Assembly (NCBI GenBank): GCA_028821235.1
Contig: JAPPGV010000081.1
Location: 109,431-173,430, forward strand
Source of the DNA: a bacterium
GTDB lineage: Bacteria > Actinomycetota > Acidimicrobiia > Spongiisociales > Spongiisociaceae
DNA length: 64,000 nt
Direction of reading: 5' to 3'
The notes under the pieces: model-generated
The model's database searches: none
Seen by the model: only the letters and a program-made list of their open reading frames with translations
What the model was told of the DNA's origin: nothing
Part shown: positions 5,515 through 25,282 of the stretch, piece by piece
Position numbering within the stretch: position 1 is the first letter of the stretch
How the letters are laid out: every line of letters starts with the position of its first letter
Position numbers and translations under genes: made by a program

Positions 5515-7041
5515 TCAGCCGAGCGGACCGGTCGCGGCCTCGACCGCAGCCACCAGGGCCTCGTCCAGGAGAAGCTCCTCGGCCTCCCGGAGCTCCGGCG
5601 ACAGGATGCGATCGGGACCTGCCCCGGGCACGCGGCTTCTCAGCAGCCGGATCGCGGCCGCGGTGCCGGCCGCCGGTTCGAGCGGCGCCCGCAGGTCGAC
5701 GGACCGCGCCGCCGTGACCCACTCGACGGCGAGGATCCGGCGCAGGTTCGCAATGACCACGCGGAGCTTGCGGGCCGCGGACCATCCCATCGACACGTGG
5801 TCCTCCTGCATGGCGGAGGTGGGATATGAGTCGACCGAGGCGGGGGCGGCGAGGCGGCGGTTCTCGGCGCACATGGCGGCCACGGTGTACTGGCCGATCA
5901 TGAGGCCGCTGTCGACACCGGGATCGTCGGCGAGGAACGGCGGGAGCCCGTGGGAGCGGTTGTGATCCAGCAGCCGGTCGAGCCGTCTCTCGGCGACGGC
6001 GCCCACCTCTGCCAGGGCGACGGCCAGGTAGTCGGCCGCGAGCGCGACCGGCGCCCCGTGGAAGTTCCCGCAGGACTCGACGCGACCGTCGGGAAGGACC
6101 ATCGGGTTGTCGATGGCCGAAGCCAGCTCGCGGTCGGTCACCTCCGTAACGAAGGCGAGGGTGTCGCGGGCCGCACCGTGGACCTGGGGCGTGCACCGAA
6201 TCGAGTAGGCGTCCTGGACCTGCAGGTCGCCGCGGCGGTGGCTGGCGACGATCGGTGACCCGGCCAGGACGGCCCGGAGATTGGCGGCACTGGCAGCCTG
6301 GCCGGGGTGGGGCCTCAACGCCTGGAGGTCAGCGGCGTAGGCGCGGTCGGTCGCCAGAAGACCCTCTACGCTGAGCGCCGCCACGATGTCGGCGGCGGCC
6401 AGCAGGTACGAGGCATCGTGAACGGCCAGGCAGAGCATCCCGAGCATCCCGTCCGTGCCGTTGGTGAGGGCCAGGCCCTCCTTCTCGGCGAGGACCACGG
6501 GCGCGATGCCGTTGCGGGCGAGGGCGGCGGTGGCCGCCTCTACCCCTCCGCCGGTCATCACCTCGCCCTCGCCGATGAGGACGAGCCCTACGTGGGCCAG
6601 GGGGGCCAGATCCCCGCTGGCGCCCAGCGAGCCGTGTTCCGGCACCTTGGGAACGATCCCGGCGTTCAGCAGGCTTACCAGCCCCTCCGCGACCAGCGGC
6701 CGCGCCCCCGAATACCCGAGTGCCAGGGTCCGCGCCCGCAGGAACATCATGGCCCTGACCACTTCGGCCTCCGCCGGTGGTCCCATCCCCGCGGCGTGGG
6801 AACGGATCAGCGAGCGTTGCAGGTCGGCCCTCCGCCCCGTCGGGATGGCGGTGGTGGCCAGGGCGCCGAAACCGGTGGTGATCCCGTAGGCCGGGTCACC
6901 TTCGGCCAGTTGCTCCACTACGGAGCGGGCAGCCTTCATGCGCTCCAGGGCGCCATCCGTGAGACGGACTCTCTCGCCCCGGCGGGCAACCCCGACCACT
7001 TCCGGGACCGTCACTCCGGGACCCTCGAGCATGACTGTCAA
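5515..7041 (-). CDS. hutH: Histidine ammonia-lyase
   Basis: 508 aa with the MIO-forming GASGDLAPLAH motif. The start overlaps the stop of the upstream IclR gene by 4 nt. Confidence 0.93.
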   Translation of the reverse strand: MTVMLEGPGVTVPEVVGVARRGERVRLTDGALERMKAARSVVEQLAEGDPAYGITTGFGALATTAIPTGRRADLQRSLIRSHAAGMGPPAEAEVVRAMMFLRARTLALGYSGARPLVAEGLVSLLNAGIVPKVPEHGSLGASGDLAPLAHVGLVLIGEGEVMTGGGVEAATAALARNGIAPVVLAEKEGLALTNGTDGMLGMLCLAVHDASYLLAAADIVAALSVEGLLATDRAYAADLQALRPHPGQAASAANLRAVLAGSPIVASHRRGDLQVQDAYSIRCTPQVHGAARDTLAFVTEVTDRELASAIDNPMVLPDGRVESCGNFHGAPVALAADYLAVALAEVGAVAERRLDRLLDHNRSHGLPPFLADDPGVDSGLMIGQYTVAAMCAENRRLAAPASVDSYPTSAMQEDHVSMGWSAARKLRVVIANLRRILAVEWVTAARSVDLRAPLEPAAGTAAAIRLLRSRVPGAGPDRILSPELREAEELLLDEALVAAVEAATGPLG

Positions 7042-7820
7042 CCCGGCACCGCCAGTCGCGGAAAGAGCGCCAGGGAGGTCATTCGCGCCGCGTCCACCAC
7101 GGCCTCGGCGGTCAGGTCCAGGCGCTCACCCACCAACCTCTCCGCCGGTCCGAGGACCGAGAAGGCGCCCACGACCCCCACCGATCCATGGATGGGCGCC
7201 ACCACCGCGGTCACATCGGGTTCGATGGCGCCCGTGTTGAAGAACGGGACGGGGGGCCGGCCCGGATTCGCCACCTCGTTTGTCAGCGCCTCCCCCAGCG
7301 CCGTTCCTTCCACGGGCACCGACCTACCCACCCATCCGACGTGGCGGATCGCTCTGCGACTCTCGACCGTCGCGATGTAGACGGCCTCGCTTCCATCCCT
7401 GACCGCCAGGTAGGCGGACTCCTCGGTTACCTCGGCCAGGCGCTGCAGGGCCGGCTGGGCCGCCGCCGTGAGCCGGGCGTAGGGGCCCGATTGGAAGGCG
7501 GCCAGGGCGACCCGTACGAAGCTCGGCCCCACCGAGTACCTGCCGAGATCGTCCCGGACCAGGTAGCCGCGGCCGGTCAGGACCCGCAGGTGGCGCAGGG
7601 CCGTGCTCACCGGTATGCCGGTGGCCTCGGCCGCCTCGGTCAAACCGACCGCCCCTCCGGTCACGACCGCATCGAGCAGGCTCAGAACCCTCTCCGCCGA
7701 GCGTGATGCATGAAGCGTCGACCCGGATCCGCGCGAGGACCGAGCGGAGGTCGCGGCCACCCGATCCTGAGACTCTGCTGCTTGCCGGAGTTTCATTATC
7801 TGAAATCTCTTTCTGTTCAT
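7038..7820 (-). CDS. IclR-family transcriptional regulator (likely hut regulator)
   Basis: N-terminal wHTH (SAERVLSLLDAV...LTEAAEATGIPVSTALRHLRVL) followed by an IclR effector domain. The start may be the ATG at 7796, because the first codons fall in an AT-rich promoter-like stretch. Confidence 0.85.
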   Translation of the reverse strand: MNRKRFQIMKLRQAAESQDRVAATSARSSRGSGSTLHASRSAERVLSLLDAVVTGGAVGLTEAAEATGIPVSTALRHLRVLTGRGYLVRDDLGRYSVGPSFVRVALAAFQSGPYARLTAAAQPALQRLAEVTEESAYLAVRDGSEAVYIATVESRRAIRHVGWVGRSVPVEGTALGEALTNEVANPGRPPVPFFNTGAIEPDVTAVVAPIHGSVGVVGAFSVLGPAERLVGERLDLTAEAVVDAARMTSLALFPRLAVPG

Positions 7821-7904
7821 TGACAGGATAGAGCCGGATCAGGTATTATTCAAGGAGCAGTTCGCCCTGCGAGAACCTATCACTTCGGATCGGCGAGGTC
7901 TGCG

Positions 7905-9596
7905 ATGACGGCAATCAGGCACCCCGGTTCAGGCCCGCCGGTGGGAGGTGTCCGCGCCCCGACCGGAACCGACCTGACCTGTCGCGGCTGGCCGCAGGAA
8001 GCAGCCTTCCGCATGCTCCAGAACAACCTCGACCCCGAGGTGGCGGAACGTCCGGACGACCTGGTGGTGTACGGAGGTACCGGACGGGCCGCCCGATCAT
8101 GGGACGCCTACCACGCCATGATCCGGACGCTCACCACCCTCGCCCATGACGAGACGATGCTCGTCCAGTCGGGCAAGCCGGTCGGAGTCCTCCGCACCCA
8201 TGAATGGGCGCCCCGGGTGCTGATCGCCAACTCCAACCTCGTTCCCGACTGGGCCCACTGGGACGAGTTCCGCCGCCTGGAACACCTCGGGTTGACGATG
8301 TTCGGGCAGATGACGGCCGGCTCCTGGATCTACATCGGGACCCAGGGCATCCTGCAGGGCACCTACGAGTGCTTCGCCGCCATCGCCCGGAAACGGTTCG
8401 GGGGCACCCTGGCGGGCACCCTCACCATCACAGCCGGTCTGGGAGGAATGGGCGGCGCCCAACCTCTGGCGATCACCATGAACGGGGGCGTGGCCCTATG
8501 CATAGAGGTAGACCCCGACCGGGCAGAGCGCCGTCTCGAGACCCGTTACCTGGACGTTGTCGCCGACGGTTACACGGACGCCCTCCGCCGCTGCGCGGAG
8601 GCGGTGGCCGCCCGCCGGCCGCTCTCGGTGGGGCTGGTCGGCAACGCGGCGGAACTGCTGCCCCGCCTCCTGGCGGATGGAGTCGCCGCCGACATCGTCA
8701 CCGATCAGACACCGGCCCACGACCCGCTGGCCTACATCCCCGACGGCCTGTCCCTCGAGGAGGCCGACGAGCTCCGGGAGGCCAAACCGGACGAGTACAC
8801 CACCCGGTCTCGAGCCGCCATGGCCACCCATGTCGAGGCGATGGTCGGATTCCTCGACTCCGGGGGGGAGGTGTTCGACTACGGCAACAGCCTGCGGGCC
8901 GAGGCCGATCTCGGCGGGTACGACCGGGCGTTCGCCTATCCGGGATTCCTGCCCGCCTACATCCGCCCGCTGTTCTGCGAGGGCAAGGGACCGTTCCGCT
9001 GGGTGGCCCTGTCAGGCGACCCGGCCGACATCGCGGCCACCGACCGGGCCGTCCTCGAGGAGTTCCCCGACGACGAGGGCCTGCGGCGCTGGATCACGCT
9101 GGCCGGGGAACGGGTCGCCTTCCAGGGGCTCCCCGCCCGGATCTGCTGGCTGGGCTACGGCGAGCGCCACCGGCTGGGACTGCGGTTCAACGACATGGTG
9201 CGGTCAGGAGAGCTGAAGGCCCCCATCGTGATCGGGAGGGATCACCTCGACTCCGGATCGGTCGCCTCGCCGTACCGCGAGACCGAGGATATGGCGGACG
9301 GCAGCGATGCCATCGCCGACTGGCCCCTCCTCAACGCGCTGGTCAACACGGCGTCGGGGGCATCGTGGGTCAGCATCCATCATGGAGGAGGGGTGGGAAT
9401 CGGCCGCTCTATCCATGCCGGCCAGGTGTGCCTGGCCGACGGCACCGATCTGGGGGCGCGAAAGCTGGAACGCGTGCTCCTCAACGATCCGGCCACCGGC
9501 GTCATCAGGCATGCGGACGCCGGTTACGGACTGGCCACCCGAGTTGCCGCCGATCGGGGGGTGCGCATCCCGATGGCGGAAACGGGTGACGCGTAA
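7905..9596 (+). CDS. hutU: Urocanate hydratase
   Basis: 563 aa, urocanase-like throughout, with [15 protein letters not shown] motif. Confidence 0.93.
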
Positions 9597-11137
9597 TGGC
9601 TGCGCGACGTGGCCGGGGCGGGCGCCGTGCCCGCATCGCCGACCGCGGCCCCGCCAACCCCCAGCTTCCGTTCCGGCAGCCGAGGCTCCACTGGCTGCCG
9701 GTCCGGGCCATTCCGGACGACGGTGTCGAAGCCATCCACGAGGCGTCCCTGAAAGTACTGCGCGACGTGGGGATGGACATGCTCCACCTCGAGGCCAGGA
9801 CGCTTCTCGGTCGGGAGGGAGCGGATGTCGATCCCGACTCGGCCCGGGTGCGTTTCGATCCTGAGATGGTCACCGAACTGGTCGGTCACGCACCGCGTTC
9901 GTTCACGCTCCACGCCCGCAACCCCGCCCACAGCATCCGCCTCGGAGGGAATCACCTGGCGTTCGCGGCGGTGGCCAGCCCGCCCCACGTCTCGGGTCTC
10001 GGCCGTGACCGGCGTACGGGAAACCGGGACGACTTCAGGCAACTCGTGCGCCTGAGCCAGCACCTGAACGCCGTGCATCTACACGGTGGGTACCCGGTGG
10101 AACCCACCGACCTCCATCCTTCCGTCCGGCACCTGCACGCCACCCACGATCTCCTCACGCTCAGCGACAAGGCCATCCACACCTACAGTCTCGGCCGGCA
10201 GCGGACCCTAGACACGATCGAGATGGCCCGGATCGCCCGGGCGGTGACCGACGAGGAGCTCGAGTCCCAGCCTTCCCTGTTCACGGTGGTCAACACCTCG
10301 TCGCCGCTGCGGCTCGACACCCCGATGATCGAGGGCATCCTCGAGATGTCGGCCCGCAACCAGCCGGTGGTGGTCACCCCTTTCACCCTGGCGGGAGCGA
10401 TGGCCCCGGTGACCGTCGCCGGTGCGCTGGTCCAGCAGAACGCCGAGGCCCTCGCCGGCATCGCCCTCACCCAGGCCGTCCGGCGCGGAGCGCCTGTGGT
10501 GTACGGCGGGTTCACCTCCAACGTGGACATGCAGTCGGGCGCTCCCGCGTTCGGGACCCCCGAATACCTGCAGGCCGCGCTGGTCGGCGGCCAGCTGGCG
10601 CGCCGCTACGGCCTCCCGTACCGGTCTTCGAACGCCAACGCCTCCAACGCCGTGGACCTCCAGGCCACCTACGAGAGCATGTTCTCGCTGTGGGGAGCGG
10701 TGATGGGCGGCGCCAACCTGGTGATGCACGCGGCCGGCTGGCTCGAGGGCGGGCTGCGGGCGTCCTTCGAGAAGATGGTGCTGGACGCCGACCTGCTGCA
10801 GATGATCTGCACGGCGCTCGAACCACCGGCTACCGATGGCGGTTCGCTGGCCGTCGAAGCCATCGCCGATGTCGGACCGGGCGGCCACTTCTTCGGTACC
10901 GCTCATACCCGGGCCCGCTACCGCGACGCCTTCCACGACCCCCTCCTCTCCGACTGGAGCAACTTCGAGACCTGGGACGAGGCCGGACGGCCCGATCCCG
11001 CCCGGCGGACCGAGACCCTCGCCAAGGAGTTGCTGAGCGCCTACGAGAAGCCCCCGATGGACATCGCGGTCCGTGAAGAACTCGATGACTTCGTCGCCCG
11101 CCGAGCCCGCGAAGGCGGGGTGGCGACCGACTATTGA
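9596..11137 (+). CDS. MttB-superfamily (non-pyrrolysine trimethylamine/quaternary-amine methyltransferase-like) protein
   Basis: 513 aa with no in-frame TAG. The N-terminal RRGRGGRRAR and AIHEASLKVLRDVGMD, and the overall pattern, match the MttB family. Its ATG overlaps the hutU stop (TAATG). Confidence 0.75.
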   Translation: MAARRGRGGRRARIADRGPANPQLPFRQPRLHWLPVRAIPDDGVEAIHEASLKVLRDVGMDMLHLEARTLLGREGADVDPDSARVRFDPEMVTELVGHAPRSFTLHARNPAHSIRLGGNHLAFAAVASPPHVSGLGRDRRTGNRDDFRQLVRLSQHLNAVHLHGGYPVEPTDLHPSVRHLHATHDLLTLSDKAIHTYSLGRQRTLDTIEMARIARAVTDEELESQPSLFTVVNTSSPLRLDTPMIEGILEMSARNQPVVVTPFTLAGAMAPVTVAGALVQQNAEALAGIALTQAVRRGAPVVYGGFTSNVDMQSGAPAFGTPEYLQAALVGGQLARRYGLPYRSSNANASNAVDLQATYESMFSLWGAVMGGANLVMHAAGWLEGGLRASFEKMVLDADLLQMICTALEPPATDGGSLAVEAIADVGPGGHFFGTAHTRARYRDAFHDPLLSDWSNFETWDEAGRPDPARRTETLAKELLSAYEKPPMDIAVREELDDFVARRAREGGVATDY

Positions 11138-11147
11138 GAGGAGTTGC

Positions 11148-11822
11148 GTGAAGCCTGTCCGTTACAGCCCGGCCCGCCTTCGGACCGACGAGAACCCCGC
11201 CGGCCATCCATGCGCGGACCTACTTCACTACGAGGCCGACCTCGCCGTGCTGGACCACCTCCGCCGGGACCTGCGGGCGCTACTCCGCCGCGCCAGGGCG
11301 GGCGAGCTGGAACTCCGCCCGTACGAGATCAGGAACTGGGACGAGGACGGGCTGCGCCGCAGGATCGTCATGTGCGACCCGGCGACCCTGTTGGAGGGCA
11401 CGGATGTCCTCATCGTGGGCTTTCTCGGGAACCGGAGGTCGACCCCGGAGGCCCAGGCGATCGACGAGTTCGACATCGACGTGATCTCCGAATTCCGGCA
11501 GTACCCGGGAATCCTCAGCTACAGCTCGACAGAGAGAACCCCGAAGCAATGGGCGAACCTGGTGGTCCACCAGGAGGTCGGGGACCGTGAGGCCTGGCGC
11601 CACAGCGCGGTTCACGTAGAAGCGGCCGAGGTGCTGTCCCCCGTCGTGTACCACAACGTCCGCATCCACAACGGGCGGCTGCGCGGGGGCCCGATCGGCG
11701 ACGGCCGGGTGACCGTGGACATCAGTAAGTACTGGGATTACGACTCGGACCCGATGTGGCACGCGGTCCGGACACTCCCGGGAGGTATCACATCCGCGGA
11801 GTCCTGGCCGGGCCGGCGATGA
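11148..11822 (+). CDS. Hypothetical protein (possible ABM/dimeric alpha-beta-barrel-like domain)
   Basis: GTG at 11148 preceded by GAGGAG. The ORF-track start at 11073 would overlap the mttB-like gene. No motif recognised. The segment VGFLGNR...YSSTERTPKQWANLVVHQEVGDREAWRHSAVH is ABM/DUF3291-like by eye only. Confidence 0.5.
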   Translation: MKPVRYSPARLRTDENPAGHPCADLLHYEADLAVLDHLRRDLRALLRRARAGELELRPYEIRNWDEDGLRRRIVMCDPATLLEGTDVLIVGFLGNRRSTPEAQAIDEFDIDVISEFRQYPGILSYSSTERTPKQWANLVVHQEVGDREAWRHSAVHVEAAEVLSPVVYHNVRIHNGRLRGGPIGDGRVTVDISKYWDYDSDPMWHAVRTLPGGITSAESWPGRR

Positions 11823-12388
11823 CGGTGAGGCCGATCCTCTCCATAGGCGATCCTGGGCTGCGGGTACGGGCCGGAGAAGTGTCCCGCCGCGACATCTCGC
11901 TCCCGGCGATCCAGGACCTCATCGACGACCTCATCGACACCATGCGGCACGCCAACGGATCGGGGATCGCCGCCACCCAGATAGGCGAGCCCGTCCGGGT
12001 CATGGTGATGGAGGTCGACGACAACCCGCGCTATCCCTACAAGCCGCCCATCCCCCTCACCGTGGCGATCAACCCGGAGTACGACGTTCTCGACGACAGG
12101 ACGGTGATCATCAACGAGGGATGCCTGTCGGTCCCGCTGCGGGGCGACTTGGAACGCCACGTGAACCTCGGCGTCCGCTACACAGACCGCCACGGGACCG
12201 ATCATGAACGAGTCCTGCGCGGCCTCACCGCCGGGACCTGGCAGCACGAGTGCGATCACCTCAACGGCGTCCTGGTGGTCGACCGGATCGACCCCAAGAC
12301 CCTCAGCACCTGGGAGGAGTTCGACCGGCATCACCGTGAGCCCTTCGTGGAGCGCATCACCCGCTTCGTGGCGGAGGTTGGCTCGTGA
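11819..12388 (+). CDS. def: Peptide deformylase-family metallohydrolase
   Basis: All three PDF motifs are present: GSGIAATQIG, EGCLSVP, HECDHLNG. The start ATG at 11819 overlaps the upstream stop (ATGA) and the stop overlaps the hutF GTG (GTGA). Confidence 0.85.
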   Translation: MTVRPILSIGDPGLRVRAGEVSRRDISLPAIQDLIDDLIDTMRHANGSGIAATQIGEPVRVMVMEVDDNPRYPYKPPIPLTVAINPEYDVLDDRTVIINEGCLSVPLRGDLERHVNLGVRYTDRHGTDHERVLRGLTAGTWQHECDHLNGVLVVDRIDPKTLSTWEEFDRHHREPFVERITRFVAEVGS

Positions 12389-13752
12389 GCAGCCGCTACT
12401 GGTGCGAGCTGGCCTGGCTGGGCGGCCCGACGGCCGTCCCCGGCGTGCTGATCGAAGTGGACGGCGACCGCATCGCCGGGGTCTCCCCCGGCCACGCCTC
12501 GCCTCCCCGCGACGCCGTCGAGCTGTCCGGCCTGACCCTCCCCGCGCTGGCCAACGCCCACAGCCACGCCTTCCATCGGGCATTGCGGGGCCGGACCCAT
12601 GGCGGTGAAGGAACCTTCTGGACGTGGCGCGACCTGATGTACGGGGTGGCCGCCAACCTCGATCCGCAGAACTACTACCTGCTCGCCCGGGCGACCTTCG
12701 CCGAGATGGCGCTGGCCGGAATAGGCGTGGTGGGCGAGTTCCACTACGTCCACCACCGGCCCGGAGGGGACCCTTATGACGACCCGAACGCCTTCGGGGC
12801 GAGCCTGGTGGCCGCGGCGCGGGATGCAGGTGTCCGCCTGACCCTGCTCGACACGCTGTACCTGCACGGAGGGTTCGCTCCCTGGTCGGGATCCGGGTAC
12901 GCCCCATTGCGGCCCGAACAGGCCCGGTTCAGCGACAGATCGGTCCATGCCTGGACACGTAGGGTCGACAGCCTCCGGGCGACAGTTCCGGGCCCGGGCA
13001 CCAGGGTCGGGGCGGCGGTCCACTCGGTCCGCGCCGTCGACCCGCCGTCGATCGGAATGGTGGCTCGCTGGGCCAGGGACAGGGCTCTGCCCCTTCACGT
13101 TCACGTCTCCGAGCAGCCGGCCGAGAACGAAGCCTGCCGCGAGGTCCACGGTCGAAGCCCGACGACCGTGCTGTCCGGCGTGGGTGCGCTGGGCTCGGGC
13201 ACCACCCTCGTCCACGCCACGCATCTCTCCGGCGACGACATCGGTCTGATCGGCGCCGCCGGAGCCCACTGCTGCATCTGCCCCACCACCGAGCGCGACC
13301 TGGCCGACGGGATCGGGCCCAGCCAGGACCTGGCCCGGGCGGGGGCGGTCCTCTGCGCGGGATCGGACTCCCACGCGGTCATCGACATCCTCGAGGAGAC
13401 ACGCTCGGTGGAGCTGGGCGCGAGGATCCTGACGAACCGGCGGGGAATCCACCCCATCGAGACCCTCGCCGCCATCGCCACCGTCAACGGGTACCGGTCG
13501 CTCGGTTGGAAGGACGGAGGCGTTATCAAGCCGGGTTATCTGGCCGACTTCACCAGCATCGGGCTGGACTCGGTCCGCCTGGCAGGCATCGACAACCCCG
13601 ACGTTCTCGACGCGGTGATCTTCGCCGGCTCCAGCGCTGACGTTCACAACCTCGTGGTCGGTGGCCGGCCGGTGGTGGTAGGCGGCGCCCACGTGTCGGT
13701 CGATGCGGCGGGCGAGCTCGACTCCGCCATCGCCAAGGTGTTGGCGGCATGA
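12385..13752 (+). CDS. hutF: Formimidoylglutamate deiminase
   Basis: 455 aa amidohydrolase with the HxH motif ANAHSHAF and an N-terminus ([10 protein letters not shown]) typical of HutF. Confidence 0.8.
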
Positions 13753-14930
13753 CGCTGGTGATCGACAACATCGGCGAGCTGGTCACCAACGTCCCCGCGC
13801 TCGGGGCGGGACCGCTCGGGATCGTGGAGAACACTTCGGTGGTGATCGACGGGGACACCGTGGTCTCGGTAGGTGCGGCCGGCGCGGTGGCGGACGAGCG
13901 CCTGGACGCCGGAGGCAGGTGCGTGATGCCCGGGTTCGTCGACTCGCACACCCATCTGGTGTTCGCCGGCGACCGGGCGGAGGAGTTCACGCGGCGGATG
14001 GCCGGGGAGCACTATGACGGCGGAGGGATCCGGGTGACGACCGAGGCCACCCGGACCGCGGGTCGGGAAGCCCTGCGGGCGGGCCTGGCCCGGCGGCTCG
14101 AGGAGGTCCACCGGGCCGGCACCACCACGGTGGAGATCAAGTCCGGGTACGGGTTGTCGGTCGAATCCGAGGCTGCCACCACCTCGCTCGCCGCCGAGGT
14201 CACCCCGGAGAGCACCTTCATGGGCGCCCACGTGGTGCCCACCGAGTACCTGGGCAGGACCGATGAGTATGTCGACCTGGTGTGCGGACCGATGCTCGAG
14301 GCCGTCCTGCCCCACGTACGCTGGATCGACGCCTTCTGCGAGCGCGGGGCATTCGACGCCGACCAGTCGAGGGCGGTCCTCGAGGCGGGCCGCGCCGCCG
14401 GCCTCGGCCTACGCCTCCACGCCAACCAGCTTGATTACGGTCCCGGAGTCCGCCTCGGCGTGGAGATGGGCTGCGCGTCGGTGGACCATTGCACCTACCT
14501 CTCCGACGAAGACATAGAGGCCCTGGCAGCCGGCGATACCGTGGCCACCTTCCTCCCGGCGGCGGACTTCTCCACCCGCCAACCGTATCCCGACGCCCGG
14601 CGGGCCATCGACGCCGGCGTCACCGTGGCCATCGCATCGAATTGCAACCCCGGGTCGAGCTACACGAGCTCTATCTCGTTCTGCATCGCGCTGGCGGTGC
14701 GCGACATGAACATGACCATCGACGAGGCGATCGCCGCCGCCACGACCGGCGGGGCGGCCGCTCTCCGGCGCGAGGACGTGGGCAGGTTGGCGCCCGGCGG
14801 GCCTGCCCACCTAACCATCATCGACGCCCCGAACCGTCACCACCTCGCCTACCGGCCCGGGGTTCCGCTGATATGGCGGACGATCGGCGCCGGCTACGCG
14901 AACCCGGAAGACGACAACGAGAACCCGTAA
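13749..14930 (+). CDS. hutI: Imidazolonepropionase
   Basis: 393 aa amidohydrolase, [14 protein letters not shown], HutI-like throughout. ATGA overlap with hutF. Confidence 0.9.
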
Positions 14931-14945
14931 GAGAAAGGTCAACCC

Positions 14946-16403
14946 ATGAACGTTCCCAACCCCACCGGACACAACCAGTGGTACCCGTTCGCCAACCGCC
15001 CGCTCCCGCCCGATGTCAACGGCCAGTCGGCCAACCCGGCGGCGATACCCGTCTTCGATTCGGCCCCCCTGCCGCGGAGCGCCCGGTTCGTGGTGGTCGG
15101 CGCCGGTGTCCACGGGCTGTCGAGCGCCTACCACTTGGCCATGTACCTCGAGCGATCGGGGAAGGGCAAGGGAAGCGATGTCGTGCTGATCGACAAGCAG
15201 GGACCCGGCGCCGGGGCCACCGGCCTGGCCTGCGGGTGCGTCCGCAACCTCTACATGACCAACGCGCTCCACCCCATCCTGCGCGCCAGCGTGGAGGTGT
15301 GGGAGTCCGATCCCGTGAACTTCGGCTTCCAGCAGGTCGGCTACGTGTCGGTCGGGGAGGCGAACCAGGAGGAGGACTACATCGAGCTCCACGCGTCGCA
15401 GGCCGCGAGCGGGTACCCGTCGGACCTCTACTTCGGATCGGACGCGCATGCGTTCCTGACCGGGCTGTGGCCCGACTTCAAGACCGAGAACTGCGACGTG
15501 GTGCTCCACGAGCGCCGGTCCGGATACGCCGGCACCCATATCGCCGTCTGGGGCCTCGACCAGAAGTGCCGGCAGTGGGGCGTGCAGCGCGTGTACGGAA
15601 CCACGGTCACCGGCTACGAGCGGGATGCCTCGGGATCGGTCACCGCGGTGGAGACCGACCAGGGACCCATATCGTGCGAGCAGGTCGTGGTGGGCGCCGG
15701 CGCGTGGACGCCGCAGCAGTGGGACTGGCTGGGCGGCCCCTCCCACCTCGACGTCCTGTATCCCGACGGGCACATCGAGAAGCAGATGGACATGTGGACC
15801 TACTGGCGCCTCCTGGAAGGCGAGGTCCTCCTCCCCGAGGGCGTGGACTTCCGCACCGCCCAGCACCGGGACTCCCCGGTTCTCCACGTGGAACTGCTGG
15901 ACACGCCGATCTACGGCGAGGACGGAACGATGATCAAGGACCACACCTACGTTTACACGCGCTACGCCGCCGAGCGGGTGGGCGCTCCCGGCCTCCAGGG
16001 CGGCACGATCCCGATCAAGATCGGCCCCCGAGCGGAGGTCGAGCCCTACGGCCATCTCAATGACCTCTACCAGGCGGAATCGTGGTTCGCCGACTACTAC
16101 TGCTCCGCCCTGGGCATGCTGTTCAAGCGCCTCGAGAACCTGCGGCCGTACTTCAAGGACCGCCGCAACGGTGGGATCGGTGCGTTCACACCCGACAACG
16201 TGCCGGTATTCGACCACCTCACGGACAACGCCTGGGTGATCGCCGACTCCAACCATGGTTTCAAGATGATCGGTGTGGGCAAGCTCACCGCTCAGATGCT
16301 CGTGTACGGAGAGAAGCCCGAGGAGTTGAAGCCGTTCACCCTGGACCGGTACCGCACCGGCGGCACCTTCGGCAACCGGAACTCGAACAGTCCTTGGGTC
16401 TGA
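14946..16403 (+). CDS. FAD-dependent oxidoreductase (DAO family, sarcosine/dimethylglycine-oxidase-like)
   Basis: FVVVGAGVHGLSSAYHLA dinucleotide-binding motif; 485 aa. A GAGAAAGG SD lies 15 nt after hutI. Confidence 0.75.
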   Translation: MNVPNPTGHNQWYPFANRPLPPDVNGQSANPAAIPVFDSAPLPRSARFVVVGAGVHGLSSAYHLAMYLERSGKGKGSDVVLIDKQGPGAGATGLACGCVRNLYMTNALHPILRASVEVWESDPVNFGFQQVGYVSVGEANQEEDYIELHASQAASGYPSDLYFGSDAHAFLTGLWPDFKTENCDVVLHERRSGYAGTHIAVWGLDQKCRQWGVQRVYGTTVTGYERDASGSVTAVETDQGPISCEQVVVGAGAWTPQQWDWLGGPSHLDVLYPDGHIEKQMDMWTYWRLLEGEVLLPEGVDFRTAQHRDSPVLHVELLDTPIYGEDGTMIKDHTYVYTRYAAERVGAPGLQGGTIPIKIGPRAEVEPYGHLNDLYQAESWFADYYCSALGMLFKRLENLRPYFKDRRNGGIGAFTPDNVPVFDHLTDNAWVIADSNHGFKMIGVGKLTAQMLVYGEKPEELKPFTLDRYRTGGTFGNRNSNSPWV

Positions 16404-16482: not shown

Positions 16483-17232
16483 TTGAGCACCCCGGCAGCT
16501 GGGCCGCTGAGAGCCGCAACCTATCTGGGCGACAACACGCAGCCCATCATGGGCGATCTGGTCGGACACCTGTCGGAGATGACCGGCATCGAGGTGGTGA
16601 TCGACCAGACGGCGGGGAGGACGACCATCGAGGCGCTCCGCCACGCGCCCACGCTCGACCTGGTCTGGATGTGCGGTTACCCGACCGTATCGCTCATCTC
16701 GGCCGGACGGATGTCCCATGCCGTTGTGGGCGCGCCGGTCTTCGCCGGTCACGGAGGACCGGTCTACCACGCGGTAATCGTCACCCATGGGTCCGGACCG
16801 CAATCATTGGGCGCCGCGCTGGAGACCAGGCTGGCCGTGAACGAACTCGAGTCCTGGTCCGGCTTTCTCGGGCTCAAGGCCCATGTCGAGCGATCCTTCC
16901 CTGGTAGGTGGTTCGCCGACCAAGTCGTGGCCGGTTCGCACCGGGCCTCGCTCGCAGCGCTGGCCGACGGGACCTGTGATGTCGCCTCGGTCGACGTGAC
17001 CGTGTGGGAGCACGCGCTGGCCGAGAGGCCGGAGGAAGTGGCGGGATTCCGCGTGATCGACCGCACCGTCGACTGGCCGGCGCCACCCTTCAGCTTGAGT
17101 TCGAAATTGGAGACCGCAACACGCGACAGCCTCACACGAGCGTTGCATGCCCTCGGCCCGGCGGACATCGCCTCGCTGGACGGCGTGGTTCCCGCCGGGC
17201 TCGATCTCTACGAGAACGTGATGCCCGTGTGA
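16483..17232 (+). CDS. PhnD-like periplasmic-binding-protein-fold protein lacking a signal peptide
   Basis: TTG start preceded by AGGAGAAGG; 249 aa. PBP type-2 pattern similar to phosphonate/phosphite-binding proteins, with no hydrophobic N-terminus. Confidence 0.55.
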   Translation: MSTPAAGPLRAATYLGDNTQPIMGDLVGHLSEMTGIEVVIDQTAGRTTIEALRHAPTLDLVWMCGYPTVSLISAGRMSHAVVGAPVFAGHGGPVYHAVIVTHGSGPQSLGAALETRLAVNELESWSGFLGLKAHVERSFPGRWFADQVVAGSHRASLAALADGTCDVASVDVTVWEHALAERPEEVAGFRVIDRTVDWPAPPFSLSSKLETATRDSLTRALHALGPADIASLDGVVPAGLDLYENVMPV

Positions 17233-17272: not shown

Positions 17273-17509
17273 ATGCCGGTTCAGATAACCGTAAGGGGTG
17301 TCCCGGAGTCAGTCCGCGACGAGCTAGCCGCGAGAGCTGCCCTCAACCGCCAGTCGATGCAGGAATACCTGCGATGCGAGTTGGAGCGCATTGCCTCCCG
17401 ACCATCCCTAGCCACCTTGGTCTCCGAAATACGGCGGCGTAAGGCGGCCGCAGGCACCAGCATTCCAAGTTCGCTGATCATTCAAGAGCGAGACGCGGAC
17501 CGGAAGTGA
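17273..17509 (+). CDS. vapB: FitA/VapB-like ribbon-helix-helix antitoxin
   Basis: MPVQITVRGVPESVRDELAARAALNRQSMQEYLR is an Arc/MetJ-type RHH. The stop overlaps the PIN gene start by 4 nt. Confidence 0.8.
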   Translation: MPVQITVRGVPESVRDELAARAALNRQSMQEYLRCELERIASRPSLATLVSEIRRRKAAAGTSIPSSLIIQERDADRK

Positions 17510-17925
17510 AGGCAGTTGTCGACTCATCGGTGCTCGTGGCGGCGCTGGTGGATACCACTAACGACGGCCTCTGGGCAGAGGAGGTGATCTCGGAGGGTCC
17601 GCTAGCCGCACCGGAACTGGCCCTGGCAGAGGTCACCAACGTCCTTCGGCGGATGGAACTATCCGTAAGGCTCTCAAGTCTTGAAGCCACGGCTTCTCAT
17701 CGCGACCTGCTCAGACTTGACCTGGACTTGTACCCATTCGCGCCGTTTGCCGACCGTGTATGGGCGTTACGCGCCAACCTGACCTGCTACGACGCCTGGT
17801 ACGTGGCGCTGGCCGAAGCGCTTGACTTCCCACTTGTAACCCTCGACCGCAGGATCGGCCGATCCCCTGGACTGCAGTGTGAGGTGGTTCTTCCACAGAG
17901 GCCAAGACCACGAAGCCCGGCATGA
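17506..17925 (+). CDS. vapC: PIN-domain toxin VapC
   Basis: 139 aa; VVDSSVLVAAL N-terminal acidic motif and CYDAWYVALAE, typical of PIN. Confidence 0.85.
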   Translation: MKAVVDSSVLVAALVDTTNDGLWAEEVISEGPLAAPELALAEVTNVLRRMELSVRLSSLEATASHRDLLRLDLDLYPFAPFADRVWALRANLTCYDAWYVALAEALDFPLVTLDRRIGRSPGLQCEVVLPQRPRPRSPA

Positions 17926-17926
17926 T

Positions 17927-19480
17927 TCAAGAGGTCGGTCGAAGTTTGCGCCCGTTCAGCATCGTCCCGATCGGGGTGTAGCGGATGAAGAACCGATAGG
18001 TCAAGAGGAGCAGAACCGTCACGGCCACCGAGATCATCAAGAACTTGACCTCCGCCGGTAGGTTCCAGTCCCTTACGACTGCTTGTGCAACCACCACCAA
18101 CGGAAGGTGGGCGAGGTATAGCCAGTACGACGAGTCGGAGAGAAAGCGGACCCCAGGACGTTCTTCCGCCAGCAGCACCCGGAACAGCCCCATCAGCCCG
18201 AAGCACATCCCCCAGGCGTAGGCCACCTGCAATACGGACGCCGCCGGCCATGAGAAGGCCGCTTCGTCGAAGGTGAAGACCAGCCCGGCCGGAAGCACGA
18301 CCAGGAACGAGACCGGCAGGAAGGCCCACCACGGTCTCCCCACCGTGTCGACCAGCAGCTCGCCGCTGCGCCCCCGGCGCCGGTACATCAGGGCCCCGAA
18401 TGCGAAGAAGGTGGCGTAGTAGGCGAGAACGTGGGGAAGCGGAATGAGGCCATCAGAGGTGTCGGGCCCGAACACCGGATAGACGCCGCCCCCGCCCATG
18501 TACAACTGCGGCACGATCGTGAGGGGAATCATCGACCACATGACCCACCGCGGCCAGGTCGCCTGCCCGGAGCCATGGGGAACCCGGCGGTCCACCGCCC
18601 ACGCCACGATGGCGAAGCCGGCCACCAGCCAGAGGAGGAACCATAGGAACCAGAGATGGAAGAAACGCTGGATCGTGGACAGATCGAGCCGGCCGGACGA
18701 ACCATCGTCCTCCTCCGTCTCTACGGCGCCTGCTCCCCAACCCGGTACCTCCGACCACTCCATCCTTTCAGGGAGCGGGTCGCCTCCTCGGTAGACCACC
18801 AGCAGGTCGGCCGCCGCCTCGTGGCCGAAGTGGAAGGCCACCCCGAGGGGCGTCTCGCCCTCCGAGGCGGTGGCCACCGCCGCCGGCTCGGCCCCGCGCG
18901 AGAGCAGCAGTTCCAACATCTCCACGTCACCGGTCAGGGCGGCCGCGTGGAGGAGGGCCCATCCGCCCGGCTCGCTCCGGAGGTCGGGGTCGAAGCCCCC
19001 GTCCAGAAGCTGCTCCACCCCGGCGACGTCACCGGCGAACACCTTCCCCCAGATGTCATCGTCCGCGACCGGGGCTGCCGGCGCGGACCCGGCCGCCCAG
19101 TCGCCGACGAGACTGGTCAGCGGGACGATCGTGAACATGCCGATCAGGAGCGGGAGCGCCACCCGGCGCAGCCGGTGGTTCAGCAGGGCGCCGAGGCTGC
19201 GGCGCCGCCACAGCAGGGCGGTGAAGAAGCCGCTCATCAGGAAGAACACCGGCATGCGGAAACCGTGGACCGCCCACAGGAACTCGTCGAACAGGCCGTC
19301 GAGGCTCGAGGTGCGGCCCTGAACCCACCAGGGCGCCGGGAAGAACGCTAGCGAGGCGTGCAGGCCGATGCCCAGCAGCATGGCGAACCCCCGCAGAGCG
19401 TCGAGGTCGTGGAGCCGCCGCCGGGGATTCTCCCCCGCATCGACCCCGATCGCTACCGGCCGCGCCGAGGTATCCGCCAT
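17927..19480 (-). CDS. Acyltransferase-3/OpgC-like integral membrane protein with an inserted ankyrin-repeat module
   Basis: N-terminal LDALRGFAMLLGIGLHA acyltransferase_3 signature and about 10 TM segments. Residues around 140-240 carry ANK-like repeats (GWALLHAAALTGDVEMLELLLSRGAEP; ETPLGVAFHFGHEAAADLL). Confidence 0.75.
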   Translation of the reverse strand: MADTSARPVAIGVDAGENPRRRLHDLDALRGFAMLLGIGLHASLAFFPAPWWVQGRTSSLDGLFDEFLWAVHGFRMPVFFLMSGFFTALLWRRRSLGALLNHRLRRVALPLLIGMFTIVPLTSLVGDWAAGSAPAAPVADDDIWGKVFAGDVAGVEQLLDGGFDPDLRSEPGGWALLHAAALTGDVEMLELLLSRGAEPAAVATASEGETPLGVAFHFGHEAAADLLVVYRGGDPLPERMEWSEVPGWGAGAVETEEDDGSSGRLDLSTIQRFFHLWFLWFLLWLVAGFAIVAWAVDRRVPHGSGQATWPRWVMWSMIPLTIVPQLYMGGGGVYPVFGPDTSDGLIPLPHVLAYYATFFAFGALMYRRRGRSGELLVDTVGRPWWAFLPVSFLVVLPAGLVFTFDEAAFSWPAASVLQVAYAWGMCFGLMGLFRVLLAEERPGVRFLSDSSYWLYLAHLPLVVVAQAVVRDWNLPAEVKFLMISVAVTVLLLLTYRFFIRYTPIGTMLNGRKLRPTS

Positions 19481-19485
19481 CGCGT

Positions 19486-19839
19486 TCAGCGCGCGCTTGG
19501 CAGGTCCAAGACCAGCGCTAAGCCCTCCTCAACCATGCGCATCGTCGCCGTATCCAGTCGTTCGACTGATTCGGAGAGATCGGCCTTGTTGAGTGTGACG
19601 AGCTGCGACACGTTCACCACAGAGTCCCTGCCCAGGCCGGATGTCGCCCCCGCTAGGAGAACATTGCCGGGCGCTTCGTCGAGGCGTACGTTCGAGGTGA
19701 TAGCGACCGCAACCACTGTCGCGATCCCACTCCTGTTGAAGCGGTCGCTCGACATGATCAAAACGGGTCGCCGGTAACCCGGTTCGGAACCTACAGGGTC
19801 GCGGAGACTTGCCCAGCGTATGTCGCCGCGGCGGATCAC
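19486..19839 (-). CDS. mazF: MazF/PemK-family endoribonuclease toxin
   Basis: 117 aa; MIRRGDIRWASL...GYRRPVLIMSSDRFN...VVAVAITSN pattern. Confidence 0.85.
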   Translation of the reverse strand: MIRRGDIRWASLRDPVGSEPGYRRPVLIMSSDRFNRSGIATVVAVAITSNVRLDEAPGNVLLAGATSGLGRDSVVNVSQLVTLNKADLSESVERLDTATMRMVEEGLALVLDLPSAR

Positions 19840-20135: not shown

Positions 20136-21983
20136 TCATCCCCATAGCCTGGCCCTCAGGCCGGAGGCGCGCTGGACCGAGCGTTCGATGCCAAGGCGGA
20201 TAGCGGATTCGGGACCGACGACCGTCACGCTCTTGGACGCCCGGGTCACGGCGGTGTAGAGAAGCTCGCGGGTCAGCAGCCGCGACGACTCAACCGGGAG
20301 CGAGACGACCACCTCTTCGAACTGGGAGCCCTGGCTCTTGTGGATGGTCAGGGCATGCACGGTCGTGTGCTCCCCCAGGTAGCCGGGCGGGAAGGAGCGG
20401 ACGCCGCCCCGGTCGAACATGACGCGCATGCCCTCGCCGGCCCGGACCACCACCCCGATGTCCCCGTTGTAGAGGCCCAGGTTGTAGTCGTTCTTGGTGA
20501 TCATCAGCGGCCGTCCGGGGTACCACTCGCCCCGGTACCGGAGGCCGGGGAACCTCTCGTCGAGTGCGCCCTCGATGTCGCGCCTCCACTGCTCGACGCT
20601 GCCCGGACCTTCGCGATTGGCGCACAGCACCGCCATCCCGCCCAGGCGGGCCAGCGCCTCCTCCTCGCCGCCCGGCAGGGATGCCGCCCGCACCAACCCG
20701 GCGCGGTGCTCGGTGACCCGGTCTCGGACCCTCCGGAAGCCGGCCTCGGCCCGGTCCCTCACCCAGTGAAGGCCGTCGACTCCCCGGTCGAGCAACTCCA
20801 TCGCCCGGTCCGGATCAGCGTCCCGGACCGCGTCGGCGAAGTCGGCGATCGGGCCTTGCTCCTCGAAGCGGTGCACCCGCTCCAGCACCACCACGCAGCC
20901 GGCGATCTCGGGTCCGCCCGGAACGGGACTCCCCTGTCCCCGATGGGGCGACCGGGCGGCGGGACCCACTATGTCGGCGAGGACCGTTCCGGCCTCGATG
21001 GACTCCAGCTGGTACGGATCCCCGACCAGCACGAGAGTGGCGTCCGCCCGCACCGCGGCGATCAGCTTGGCGGCCAGCGGCAGCGAGACCATCGACATCT
21101 CGTCGACGACGATGAGGTCGTGGGGAAGCCGGTTCCGCTCGTGGTGGGCGAACCGGCCCCGGCCCCACGCCCACCCGAGGAGCCGGTGGATGGTGCCCGT
21201 CTGGAGCGTCTCCAGCCTCTCCCGGACTATCGGATGCTCCGCCTCGGCCGCGAGCTCGTCGATGACTTCCCCCAGCCGGGCAGCCGCCTTCCCGGTGGGA
21301 GCGCACAGCGCCACCCGCGGGAAGTCCGTGGAGGTCTGGGCCAGGGCGGCCAGCATCCTCGCCACCGTGTACGTCTTGCCGGTGCCGGGACCGCCGGCGA
21401 CCACGGTCAGCTTCCCGGTCAGAGCGTTGACGGCGGCGGCATGCTGGAGGTTCGGCTTGTTGTCGGAGACGGGTGGAAGCAACCCGTCCAGGACCGTCCG
21501 GGACTCCGGGGAGAGGATGGCCCGGGGCACGGCCGTGCGGGTTCGGATCAGGTTGACCACCCGCTCCTCGTGCCGGAAGTAACGCTCGAGGTAGAGGCGA
21601 TCGCCGTCCAGCACGAGAGGCTCCTCTCCCCTGCCGTCGCCGACCATCGCGCTACGCGACACCGCCGCCACCCAGTCCTCCGGATCCGGCCAGGGAAGCG
21701 CCTCCACCACCTCCGGAGGCCGGCCCTCGATCACCATCGCGTCACGCTGCGTATCGAGACGGATGCATACGTGCCCGAAGCGGGTTCCCCGTACGGCCAG
21801 GGCGGCGGCCAGCATCACCGCCTGGTCGGACTCGTCCCACAGGCGGCTGATCACCATCGCTGCGTGGACTTCCAGCGGCGAGAGCGCACCCCCTTCGTTG
21901 AAGGCCGCCAGCAAGCCGGACGCGCCGGCCACGGCCTGCGGTCCGGCGATGGCCGCTTCGAGCCGTCCGGAGGCCACCATCAT
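20136..21983 (-). CDS. recD: Exodeoxyribonuclease V alpha subunit RecD
   Basis: Walker A GGPGTGKT and SF1 helicase motifs. Start chosen at the ATG at 21983 (MMVASGRLEAA...), which overlaps the recB stop (ATGA). The ORF-track extension to 22160 lies inside recB. Confidence 0.88.
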   Translation of the reverse strand: MMVASGRLEAAIAGPQAVAGASGLLAAFNEGGALSPLEVHAAMVISRLWDESDQAVMLAAALAVRGTRFGHVCIRLDTQRDAMVIEGRPPEVVEALPWPDPEDWVAAVSRSAMVGDGRGEEPLVLDGDRLYLERYFRHEERVVNLIRTRTAVPRAILSPESRTVLDGLLPPVSDNKPNLQHAAAVNALTGKLTVVAGGPGTGKTYTVARMLAALAQTSTDFPRVALCAPTGKAAARLGEVIDELAAEAEHPIVRERLETLQTGTIHRLLGWAWGRGRFAHHERNRLPHDLIVVDEMSMVSLPLAAKLIAAVRADATLVLVGDPYQLESIEAGTVLADIVGPAARSPHRGQGSPVPGGPEIAGCVVVLERVHRFEEQGPIADFADAVRDADPDRAMELLDRGVDGLHWVRDRAEAGFRRVRDRVTEHRAGLVRAASLPGGEEEALARLGGMAVLCANREGPGSVEQWRRDIEGALDERFPGLRYRGEWYPGRPLMITKNDYNLGLYNGDIGVVVRAGEGMRVMFDRGGVRSFPPGYLGEHTTVHALTIHKSQGSQFEEVVVSLPVESSRLLTRELLYTAVTRASKSVTVVGPESAIRLGIERSVQRASGLRARLWG

Positions 21984-24900: not shown

Positions 24901-25282
24901 GCGCGAAACCGTGGATGGTGAAGATCTGGGCGCGATCGAAGTGGGTCAGAGCCTCCTCGAGCCGTTCCGAGTATTTCCCCTGCCGGCCGGGGTCGGCGTC
25001 GAGCAGGGCGCTGACGTGGTCGTCGACCGGCCCGACATGTGAACCGCGGAGAGCACTGAGGGTGGTGACGATCCGGCGCCTGACCCGGTCTTTGAGCTCG
25101 GCGGTGGCAGCCCTGGTGAAGGTGACCACGAGGATGCGCTCGAGTGGAAGCCCTTCCTCGGCCACCAGGCGGGTGACCACGGCCGCGATCGTGAACGTCT
25201 TGCCGGTACCGGCGCTCGCCTCGATCACCGTGCGGCCGCCGGCGATCGGCGCGTAGGGGTCGTAACGACCGATCTCGGTCAT
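21980..25282 (-). CDS. recB: Exodeoxyribonuclease V beta subunit RecB (helicase-nuclease)
   Basis: UvrD-like motif ASAGTGKTF and a C-terminal PD-(D/E)xK nuclease (VMDFKSN). Start at the ATG at 25282 (MTEIGRYDPY...), overlapping the recC stop (ATGA). Confidence 0.9.
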   Translation of the reverse strand: MTEIGRYDPYAPIAGGRTVIEASAGTGKTFTIAAVVTRLVAEEGLPLERILVVTFTRAATAELKDRVRRRIVTTLSALRGSHVGPVDDHVSALLDADPGRQGKYSERLEEALTHFDRAQIFTIHGFALRLLEKLGFRSRLSGDMEPREIDELLLRRAASDLVVGRFAVPRASDRFDQVTQEHLAQIGKVVVTIPDARITPAPASADGLARVRAEMARDMKSVLSRRLWAEGMVTFDDTLVEARDALNEERVGAGARDLLRRRYSIALVDEAQDTDPIQWQILRAVFDESRLVVIGDPKQSIYAFRGADIESYLSAVEDPSGHRTLATNWRSDGPLIDALDALLAGATFGDDRIGYRRVQPSERNRTARIRGVRGALEIRRFSDDFPLPRQQYRPFFYVREAREAVASDVASEVVRLLDHEVWLEGNDGEERRLEPGDIAVLCRTGRQVGTIRDALAAASVPSVVARTGSVFATPAAEHWRRFLLAIERPSRADYLRLAATTPLVGKDLPEVARLEGDTILDLQQHFLRWQGLLHDRGVPAMFADIDRTTGLTARILSRFEGERELTDLNHIAEEMHAAWRRGRIGSLVVWIEVAMDEAARNAEANVEDVESRQRRLDTDAAAVQVLTVHAAKGLEYPVVMAPYLWDIPRIKPMIPVFHDPEPAPEGQPRRRVIDVGGPTSPGFESHREAAMDEDAAEEGRLLYVALTRARHRLVVWWIENTQYSAKTKLHRLLSRGDDADRGIERLIEASWGTISQTILSRPQPTVPYTGEQRTPGRLDRASLDRSLDYFWRRVSFTSLSPDRPLGGEADTMEEPDRVDEPADAGEPGGAGGGLLMDDLPRGPRFGSLVHRIFQNVPFDSPDLSAAIGSELAHLTRHASWDFETDAFVGGMTAAMRTPLGPGDDALSLRDLDPGRTLKEVSFELPLRTSASTTSLRDIAAVVLERLDEDDPHRGYFPRLRDLEPHRFRGFLTGEIDLVTVLPGRRGARYVVMDFKSNTLPAAGELPASTDYGPGPLVASMHHGNYVLQALLYQVALHRYLEWRLPGYRPSVHLGGSMYLFVRGMIGPDTPVMDGERCGVARWSPPSQAVVAVSDLFAGRR

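Follow-up and report, generated by a model that had tools for sequence, protein, structure and literature searches.

In the five-step histidine-utilisation (Hut) pathway, the product of HutF needs an N-formylglutamate hydrolase, and a hutG mutant of Pseudomonas grows poorly on histidine (PMC12772324). The hydrolase of Pseudomonas, HutG, is an FGase (PF05013; EC 3.5.1.68) that takes the last step of the pathway after HutF and whose gene clusters with hutF. We know of no enzyme validated so far for this last step in organisms that have HutF without an FGase-type HutG. Peptide deformylase (PDF, or Def) is regarded as an antibiotic target and as an enzyme with one task, the maturation of proteins. 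Here we analyse a 64-kb stretch of DNA (hereafter the window; GC 67.7%) from an Acidimicrobiia bacterium of a sponge-associated, Spongiisociaceae-like group, in which a PDF homologue is encoded at positions 11819..12388 of the forward strand, inside a hut operon and immediately before hutF. The family profile (PF01327), a structural model, the position in the operon, fusions to HutF, and a residue signature lead us to propose that this protein is probably a PDF-fold N-formylglutamate deformylase, recruited as the fifth enzyme of the pathway. It would thus share with HutG the reaction, the last place after HutF, and the clustering with hutF, whereas the two proteins have no relationship in sequence or fold. 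If this function is right, the protein would be a non-orthologous displacement of HutG, linked to it by functional analogy only, and not a member of the FGase family.

The open reading frame (ORF) has a translated product of 189 amino acids (aa) that matches a single Pfam family, Pep_deformylase (PF01327), over profile positions 2-153 of 156 (E 3.4e-39; 134.4 bits vs. a gathering cut-off of 22.8). Alignment with the PDFs of E. coli and Leptospira locates motif 1 (G47-S48-G49-I-A-A-T-Q54) at 11957..11980 on the forward strand, which also carries the other two motifs. Motif 2 (E100-G-C102-L-S104; 12116..12130), with the metal-binding Cys, is invariant in an alignment of 74 sequences. Motif 3 stands after a Gly-Thr signature (G139-T140-W141-Q-H143-E144-C-D-H147; 12233..12259), and its stretch H143-E-C-D-H147, with the metal-binding His and the catalytic Glu, corresponds to nucleotides (nt) 12245-12259. 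All three motifs are invariant across the 74 relatives; the metal ligands Cys102, His143, and His147 and the catalytic residues Gln54 and Glu144 are so both in these diverse relatives and in all the fusions described below. An earlier note on this DNA had described a 189-aa protein of the PDF family with all three catalytic motifs, and the profile match and the translated ORF bear it out. The note had also described overlaps on both sides of this gene, with the upstream stop and with the start of hutF. The ATG at 11819 indeed overlaps the TGA of the preceding ORF (cgATGAcg), and the TGA of the PDF gene (12386-12388) overlaps the GTG start of hutF at 12385 (ctcGTGAgc). However, the upstream partner is not a hut gene but an ORF of 224 aa, which we call ORF X (11148..11822, forward strand).

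The AlphaFold2 (AF2) model of the protein (pLDDT 95.2, pTM 0.91) is that of a canonical PDF fold with a longer C-terminal helix. All its top Foldseek matches are PDFs, and the Leptospira enzyme 1sv2 superposes with a TM of 0.87/0.95 and a root-mean-square deviation of 1.0 Å. Profile, motifs, and the modelled alpha+beta fold all place the protein in the PDF superfamily (PF01327). Its score is nevertheless below the cut-off of the peptide-deformylase equivalog TIGR00079 (98.6 vs. 103.95 bits), while it passes NF001159, a looser NCBIfam model of a PDF subfamily (131.7 vs. 125). In comparison with described bacterial Def enzymes (Leptospira interrogans LiPDF, PDB 1sv2/1y6h; E. coli Def), the three motifs, the metal ligands, and the catalytic Gln and Glu are the same, and the chemistry to be expected is also the same, i.e. 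the attack of a metal-activated water on an N-formyl amide. Among solved examples, the likeness is closest with LiPDF, which has 41% identity to the window protein and shares with it an insertion loop (RYP...). The differences lie in the context, since the gene is found in a catabolic hut operon and neither with fmt nor alone, in the residues Ser/Ala, Gly, and Thr that replace Ile44, Ile128, and Cys129, in the fixed sequence NPRYPYKP of the loop, and in a long and highly conserved C-terminal helix (165-187). The proposed substrate differs as well, as it would be a free N-formyl amino acid and not a nascent peptide. The TIGR00079 score, the pocket, and the gene context all set the protein apart from housekeeping Def.

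The other enzymes of the pathway are encoded around the PDF gene, and HutH, HutU, HutF, and HutI each score above their NCBIfam equivalog cut-off. The gene of the histidine ammonia-lyase, hutH (5515..7041, reverse strand; PF00221 E 3e-182; TIGR01225 643 bits vs. a cut-off of 539), is transcribed divergently from the others. It is accompanied on the same strand by the gene of an IclR-family protein (7038..7820; HTH_IclR and IclR_C domains), likely the regulator of the cluster, which occurs near hutH or hutU in most of the 80 loci analysed below. On the forward strand come hutU, for urocanate hydratase (7905..9596; TIGR01228 891.6 bits vs. a cut-off of 375), hutF, for formimidoylglutamate deiminase (12385..13752; NF006681 572.8 vs. 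362; TIGR02022 444.1 vs. 413), and hutI, for imidazolonepropionase (13749..14930; TIGR01224 343.4 vs. 298), whose start overlaps the stop of hutF (ATGA). Between positions 5000 and 18000, the only promoter-like match is found just upstream of hutU (7820..7849, forward strand); it is sigma-70-like (TTGACA-18-TATTAT, 11/12) and is to be read as a consensus match only. No terminator-like site was found in the same interval. From hutU to hutI, consecutive genes overlap or are separated by ca. 10 nt. With such junctions, a single promoter match before hutU, and no terminator-like site, the PDF homologue appears to be one of the inner genes of a single hut operon.

The earlier note had stated that the window encodes neither HutG nor an arginase-type formiminoglutamase. 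This is confirmed by Pfam scans of ca. 55 ORFs over the full 64 kb, which revealed no FGase/HutG (PF05013), no member of the arginase family, and no M20 peptidase. The same scans identified no formyltransferase (fmt) and no second deformylase, and tblastn searches of the window and of 1.6 Mb of related loci gave no second PDF-like sequence.

The association between the PDF gene and hutF is conserved in related genomes. Scanning one genome for each GTDB species, we obtained 80 loci, all of them in Acidimicrobiia, with PDF homologues 66-96% identical to that of the window. Complete chromosomes with the locus include OZ241858.1, OZ253564.1, OY760694.1, NZ_OZ244781.1, and OZ242187.1. Using tblastn with the window proteins, we found the arrangement hutH(-) IclR(-) hutU(+) PDF(+) hutF(+) hutI(+) in 79 of them. 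The stop of the PDF gene overlaps the ATG or GTG start of hutF by 4 nt ([A/G]TGA) in 72 of the 80. ORF X and the gene preceding it, which encodes a methyltransferase homologue of the MttB family, are confined to the 11 loci nearest to the window (L002-L012), where they separate hutU from the PDF gene; in loci without this insertion the PDF gene starts 2-250 nt after hutU, two loci excepted. We clustered the remaining ORFs of the 80 loci and scanned them with Pfam, and no conserved neighbour fit to be a HutG substitute emerged. The conserved neighbours are a prephenate dehydratase, an MBL-fold protein, a kinase, and others, with no amidohydrolase candidate among them.

Beyond this gene order, 1.84 billion representative proteins were searched exhaustively, and 58 matched at E<=1e-30. 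The protein P0123 shares 52% identity with that of the window and is encoded on short contigs in the order hutF-hutI-PDF-hutH; its named relatives are again Acidimicrobiia/Actinomycetota. A further relative, P0419, is found in overlapping hutF-hutI-PDF genes on contigs of 5.0-6.3 Mb. The gene of a TonB-dependent receptor adjoins this cluster on the 6.3-Mb contig, so the P0419 genome does not look actinobacterial. The spread outside Acidimicrobiia thus comprises this one lineage and a set of eukaryotic fusions.

Several of the representatives are chimeras of PDF and HutF. Many are fragmentary PDF/HutF/HutU chimeras, which are probably artefacts of frameshifted operons. P0173 (659 aa), however, led to at least 15 clusters of proteins of 640-736 aa, 55-70% identical to one another, with PF01327 at the N-terminus and the amidohydrolase domain of HutF at the C-terminus. 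Some were found in the transcriptomes of two choanoflagellates (Stephanoeca diplocostata and Acanthoeca spectabilis) and a chrysophyte (Paraphysomonas), and others on metagenome contigs of marine origin with neighbours of eukaryotic type (EF-hand, ankyrin/leucine-rich-repeat, Oscp1, full-length ABC transporter, and Na/Ca exchanger genes). We considered whether these too could be frameshift artefacts and rejected the idea, because identical fusion proteins recur across samples (on 6 and 11 contigs), the transcriptome ORFs are complete, and the contigs are of eukaryotic type. The proteins of 640-736 aa are therefore genuine gene fusions. One of the PDF-HutF fusions carries the label "formimidoylglutamate deiminase" at its source. 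The fused PDF domains are 42-50% identical to the window protein. Those of choanoflagellates and chrysophytes share its signature (GAG, NPRYPYKP, AGT, and a C-terminal ..TW..F..), but differ from it in having both domains in one polypeptide and a His at position 125, where the window protein has Leu.

This signature affects the substrate pocket. Numbering residues 43-50, 87-91, and 125-136 as in the E. coli enzyme, from the alignment with the E. coli and Leptospira PDFs, the HutF-associated proteins keep Gly43, Gly45, Gln50, Glu88, Gly89, Cys90, Leu91, His132, Glu133, and His136. They are altered at Ile44 (Ala, or Ser in the subclade of the window), Glu87 (Asn), Ile128 (Gly), Cys129 (Thr), and Ile130 (Trp, Tyr, Phe, or Leu). 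In the window protein, Ser48 is the equivalent of Ile44 (Ile or Val in canonical PDFs), Gly139 of Ile128, and Thr140 of Cys129. The insertion loop of the HutF-associated proteins is fixed as NPRYPYKP (N69PRYPYKP76 in the window), and their C-terminal helix is unusually conserved (T164, W165, F168, R179, I180). The window protein thus has the complete signature of the subfamily, namely Ala/Ser44, Gly128-Thr129, NPRYPYKP, and the T-W...F...R helix. Ala/Ser44 is found in all 117 window-like, 119 P0123-like, and 14 fused sequences. Gly128-Thr129 is found in the same sequences with three conservative exceptions (Ala128 x3, Ser129 x1), and the exact RYPYKP loop is missing in 7 of them. Among 61 other close PDF representatives that are not associated with HutF, position 128 is occupied by Arg, Val, Ile, or Ala and position 129 by Val or Ile. 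In solved PDFs the Met side chain is received by a hydrophobic S1' pocket made of the equivalents of residues 44, 88, 125, 129, and 132 (PMC5071857; see also PMC4964514), and residue 44 contacts the first peptide bond through its backbone (PMC5071857). With Ser48, Gly139, and Thr140, the window protein departs from the hydrophobic S1' pocket of a housekeeping Def. The possibility that hut-linked copies have altered S1' residues, raised in the earlier note, is thus borne out by the alignment and by these counts.

Since HutF makes N-formyl-L-glutamate and the PDF active site hydrolyses formyl amides, we infer that the window protein hydrolyses N-formyl-L-glutamate. HutH, HutU, and HutI would convert histidine to N-formimino-L-glutamate, which HutF would deiminate to N-formyl-L-glutamate and ammonia, and the PDF-fold enzyme would then split N-formyl-L-glutamate into formate and L-glutamate (EC 3.5.1.68). 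Catalysis would use the unchanged metal, bound by Cys, His, and His, with the activated water and the Gln and Glu, as PDFs do on formyl-Met peptides. The pocket, on the other hand, would have been adapted to a free N-formyl amino acid whose side chain carries a carboxylate, in place of a Met side chain and the backbone of a peptide. This adaptation would involve Ala/Ser in place of Ile44, Gly in place of Ile128, Thr in place of Cys129, and the NPRYPYKP loop, with His in place of Leu125 in the fused forms. The proposal draws on operon membership, translational coupling, the linkage in different gene orders, the fusion to HutF, and the parallel arrangements of M20 peptidases described below. A candidate N-formylglutamate deformylase in place of HutG, as the earlier note had put it, is strongly favoured by the conserved coupling (79 of 80 loci), the other gene orders, the fusions, and the pocket signature. 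The note had also called such an activity and pathway variant unreported for the PDF fold; in line with this, full-text searches of a literature library gave no paper connecting PDFs with the Hut pathway or with N-formylglutamate, and nothing of relevance on Poriferisodalis.

Several observations weigh against this proposal. The protein keeps all residues needed for ordinary PDF catalysis, is 41% identical to the genuine PDF of Leptospira, and passes NF001159, so ordinary PDF activity is possible. In the Acidimicrobiia form we found no obviously cationic pocket residue to bind the carboxylates of glutamate; candidates for this role are Arg108, Lys75 and Tyr74 of the loop, Thr140, and, in the fusions, the His at position 125. 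No separate housekeeping def was found, the tblastn search covering the window and the 1.6 Mb of loci only, and among the 150 closest 50%-identity representatives there is no recognisable housekeeping def of Acidimicrobiia. The absence of hutG concerns the window and the neighbours in the 80 loci only. One of these loci, L080, has the PDF gene by itself (10001-10573; 66% identity, same length class), with neither hut genes nor fmt, and it is the only one to do so. Two relatives that bear the signature, on short contigs, adjoin DUF6918 or a pyridoxal-phosphate-dependent (PLP) enzyme and not hut genes. Finally, a previous candidate of the same kind failed: an M20 protein of Streptomyces avermitilis, proposed from its context as an "alternative N-formylglutamate deformylase", was inactive when assayed and is listed as invalidated (PMC3223725, Table 3 case 20).

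The M20 candidate deserves a closer comparison. In the actinomycete Nonomuraea, the gene of an M20 peptidase overlaps the start of hutF, in the very slot that is held by the PDF gene in Acidimicrobiia. In oomycetes (Phytophthora, Pythium, Lagenidium, Globisporangium) we identified proteins of ca. 830-860 aa with an N-terminal HutF and a C-terminal M20 peptidase (P0291, P0303, P0327, P0340, P0346, P0381, P0385, P0387), and these fusions revive the idea of M20 as an "alternative HutG". The M20 and PDF forms have in common the slot before hutF, the fusion to HutF, and genomic evidence of one kind. They differ in fold, the former being M20 metallopeptidases, and in the order of the fused domains (HutF-M20 vs. 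PDF-HutF). M20 enzymes are general N-acyl-amino-acid hydrolases, while the hydrolysis of formyl amides is the defining reaction of PDFs. The failure of M20 in vitro (PMC3223725) therefore adds value to a new candidate with the apt chemistry. In the Acidimicrobiia loci themselves, the M20 part of an oomycete fusion, used as a query, gave only weak matches (ca. 25% identity) in three loci of Ilumatobacteraceae, ca. 8 kb away, which we judged unrelated.

The alternative explanation that best survives these data is nonetheless unlikely. It holds that the protein is a PDF-fold amidase of the Hut pathway with another substrate, either hydrolysing N-formimino-L-glutamate directly or removing a formyl or other acyl group from a different histidine-derived compound, with N-formylglutamate left to an unlinked enzyme. 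Context speaks for functional coupling with HutF and does not specify the reaction, the inactivity of the M20 candidate in vitro hints that this step may be less understood than assumed, and the extra genes of sponge symbionts (MttB family, ORF X, and an oxidase of the DAO family) suggest modified histidine substrates. However, the product of HutF is an N-formyl amide, which is exactly the chemistry of PDFs. Direct hydrolysis of N-formimino-L-glutamate would make redundant a HutF that is always adjacent or fused, and the linkage persists in lineages devoid of the MttB, ORF X, and DAO genes.

That one gene fulfils both roles in reduced symbiont genomes, with a general PDF also deformylating N-formylglutamate, is distinctly unlikely. 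The genomes concerned have 2.5-5 Mb and are not strongly reduced, and the changes in the pocket are uniform and strongly conserved, which suggests specialisation. A HutF-fused domain in a eukaryote is also unlikely to serve organellar ribosomes. These points outweigh the fully kept catalytic machinery, the existence of stand-alone copies, and the lack of a second def in the window and in the 1.6 Mb of loci, all of which a dual function would explain.

We regard as very unlikely that the protein is a housekeeping peptide deformylase that stands in the hut operon through inherited synteny and not for any functional reason. The intact motifs, the canonical fold, and the NF001159 score would fit such an enzyme, as would the stand-alone copy of L080 and the failure to find another def in the sequences searched. 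Yet the gene is linked to hutF in more than one order, also in the apparently non-actinobacterial genome of P0419, the subfamily is fused to HutF in eukaryotes, and the S1' positions that are hydrophobic in PDFs are altered throughout the HutF-linked set. No fmt lies nearby, and it would be odd for an essential gene to rely, as this one appears to, on the promoter of hutU with an IclR regulator next to it. Multiple def copies are moreover normal in the phylum, as suggested by the chromosome of Nonomuraea, which has five PDF homologues, all of them with at most 37% identity to the window protein. The idea that the protein has only the fold of a PDF left and serves HutF as a non-catalytic partner or regulator would explain how tightly the two are coupled, physically and genetically, and nothing else, and it deserves almost no credit given the invariant metal ligands and the invariant Gln54 and Glu144, which are not expected of a pseudo-enzyme.

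If N-formylglutamate deformylation by the PDF homologue is retained as the best explanation, its scope may be wider than the window. We lean towards the view that proteins with the GAG/NPRYPYKP/AGT signature are a widespread and unrecognised branch of the PDF fold acting on a small metabolite. They would represent a third N-formylglutamate deformylase, not orthologous to the other forms, and would complete the HutF branch of histidine degradation in Acidimicrobiia, at least one other bacterial lineage, and several groups of protists. As far as we know, this would be the first metabolic role for the PDF fold, and it would provide a natural example of the retuning of an S1' pocket as well as fill a gap in the textbook pathway of histidine degradation. 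The protist fusion would then be a bifunctional enzyme that converts formiminoglutamate to glutamate, ammonia, and formate. In practical terms, thousands of "peptide deformylase" genes of Acidimicrobiia, including those of abundant sponge symbionts, would need to be renamed, together with the fused genes that go by "formimidoylglutamate deiminase" in protists, and counts of def paralogues would have to be read anew.

Some relatives have contexts of their own. At L080, the neighbours of the PDF gene are sortase, cupredoxin, DUF2254, and Nuo51-like genes. The signature-bearing proteins P0126 (L085/L086) and P0127 (L087), with ca. 50% identity to the window protein, are encoded beside DUF6918 or by a gene that overlaps that of a PLP-dependent (PALP) enzyme; the signature subfamily may have further contexts or substrates. 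A marine contig of 70% GC (L088) carries a signature PDF of 257 aa (P0155), pieces resembling hutU and hutI, a Beta_elim_lyase fragment, and a gene with a PI3/PI4-kinase domain, and is probably eukaryotic or poorly assembled. On a plasmid of Azospirillum ramasamyi (NZ_CP029832.1; L090), a gene annotated as formimidoylglutamate deiminase stands between those of an agmatinase and of an M20 "acetylornithine deacetylase", without other hut genes. This is possibly a pathway for a guanidino or formimino compound in which an enzyme was mis-annotated as HutF.

The segment between hutU and the PDF gene (9596-11822) contains two genes that are found there only in the subclade of sponge symbionts nearest to the window, and that form a lineage-specific insertion outside the core of the operon. 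The first (9596..11137, forward strand) encodes the MttB-family (non-pyrrolysine) methyltransferase homologue, of 513 aa (PF06253, E 1.5e-188), which scores below the cut-off of the trimethylamine-methyltransferase equivalog (300 vs. 525); we saw no gene of a corrinoid protein in the window. The second, ORF X, starts with a GTG preceded by GAGAGGAG. It has no Pfam match even at E 10 and no match in NCBIfam or among PDB sequences, and its single-sequence AF2 model is unusable (pLDDT 35). We considered it as a hidden HutG and rejected it because it is missing from most of the loci where hut and PDF genes co-occur. At L068 (3624-4918), an ORF X homologue with 51% identity adjoins genes of Phosphonate-bd-type binding proteins upstream of hutH, in the absence of an MttB gene. 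ORF X may thus belong with a transporter rather than with MttB.

Two accessory genes follow hutI on the forward strand of the window. One encodes an FAD oxidoreductase of the DAO family (14946..16403; PF01266), with weak NCBIfam matches, weakly resembling the beta subunit of sarcosine oxidase and N-methyltryptophan oxidase. It occurs after hutI in more than 45 loci, which include most of those of Poriferisodalis, Aldehydirespirator, and Spongiisociaceae, and is absent from the other hut clusters of Acidimicrobiia. The other encodes a periplasmic substrate-binding protein of the Phosphonate-bd family (16483..17232; PF12974, E 3.4e-23), and a gene of this type is also found 3' of hutI in L099. 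Together with MttB and ORF X, these two genes hint, speculatively, at the catabolism of an N-methylated histidine derivative, e.g. histidine betaine.

In the rest of the window, the region directly 3' of the hut cluster (17506-19839) has genes of PIN-domain and PemK-family toxins that flank the gene of a 517-aa protein with Acyl_transf_3 and ankyrin repeats, and ankyrin proteins are typical of sponge symbionts. Further on, near glyA (44480-45823), the alpha subunit of a Rieske/ring-hydroxylating oxygenase and a ferredoxin-NAD(P) reductase (FAD_binding_6/NAD_binding_1/Fer2) are encoded as a pair at 47134-49329, in a layout that resembles the monooxygenases of quaternary amines (glycine betaine or carnitine type). 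A RecBCD-type set (RecD-, UvrD/RecB-, and RecC-like genes; 20136-28647) and the operon of the F1Fo ATP synthase (36132-42616) are ordinary housekeeping content, which confirms that the window is chromosomal.

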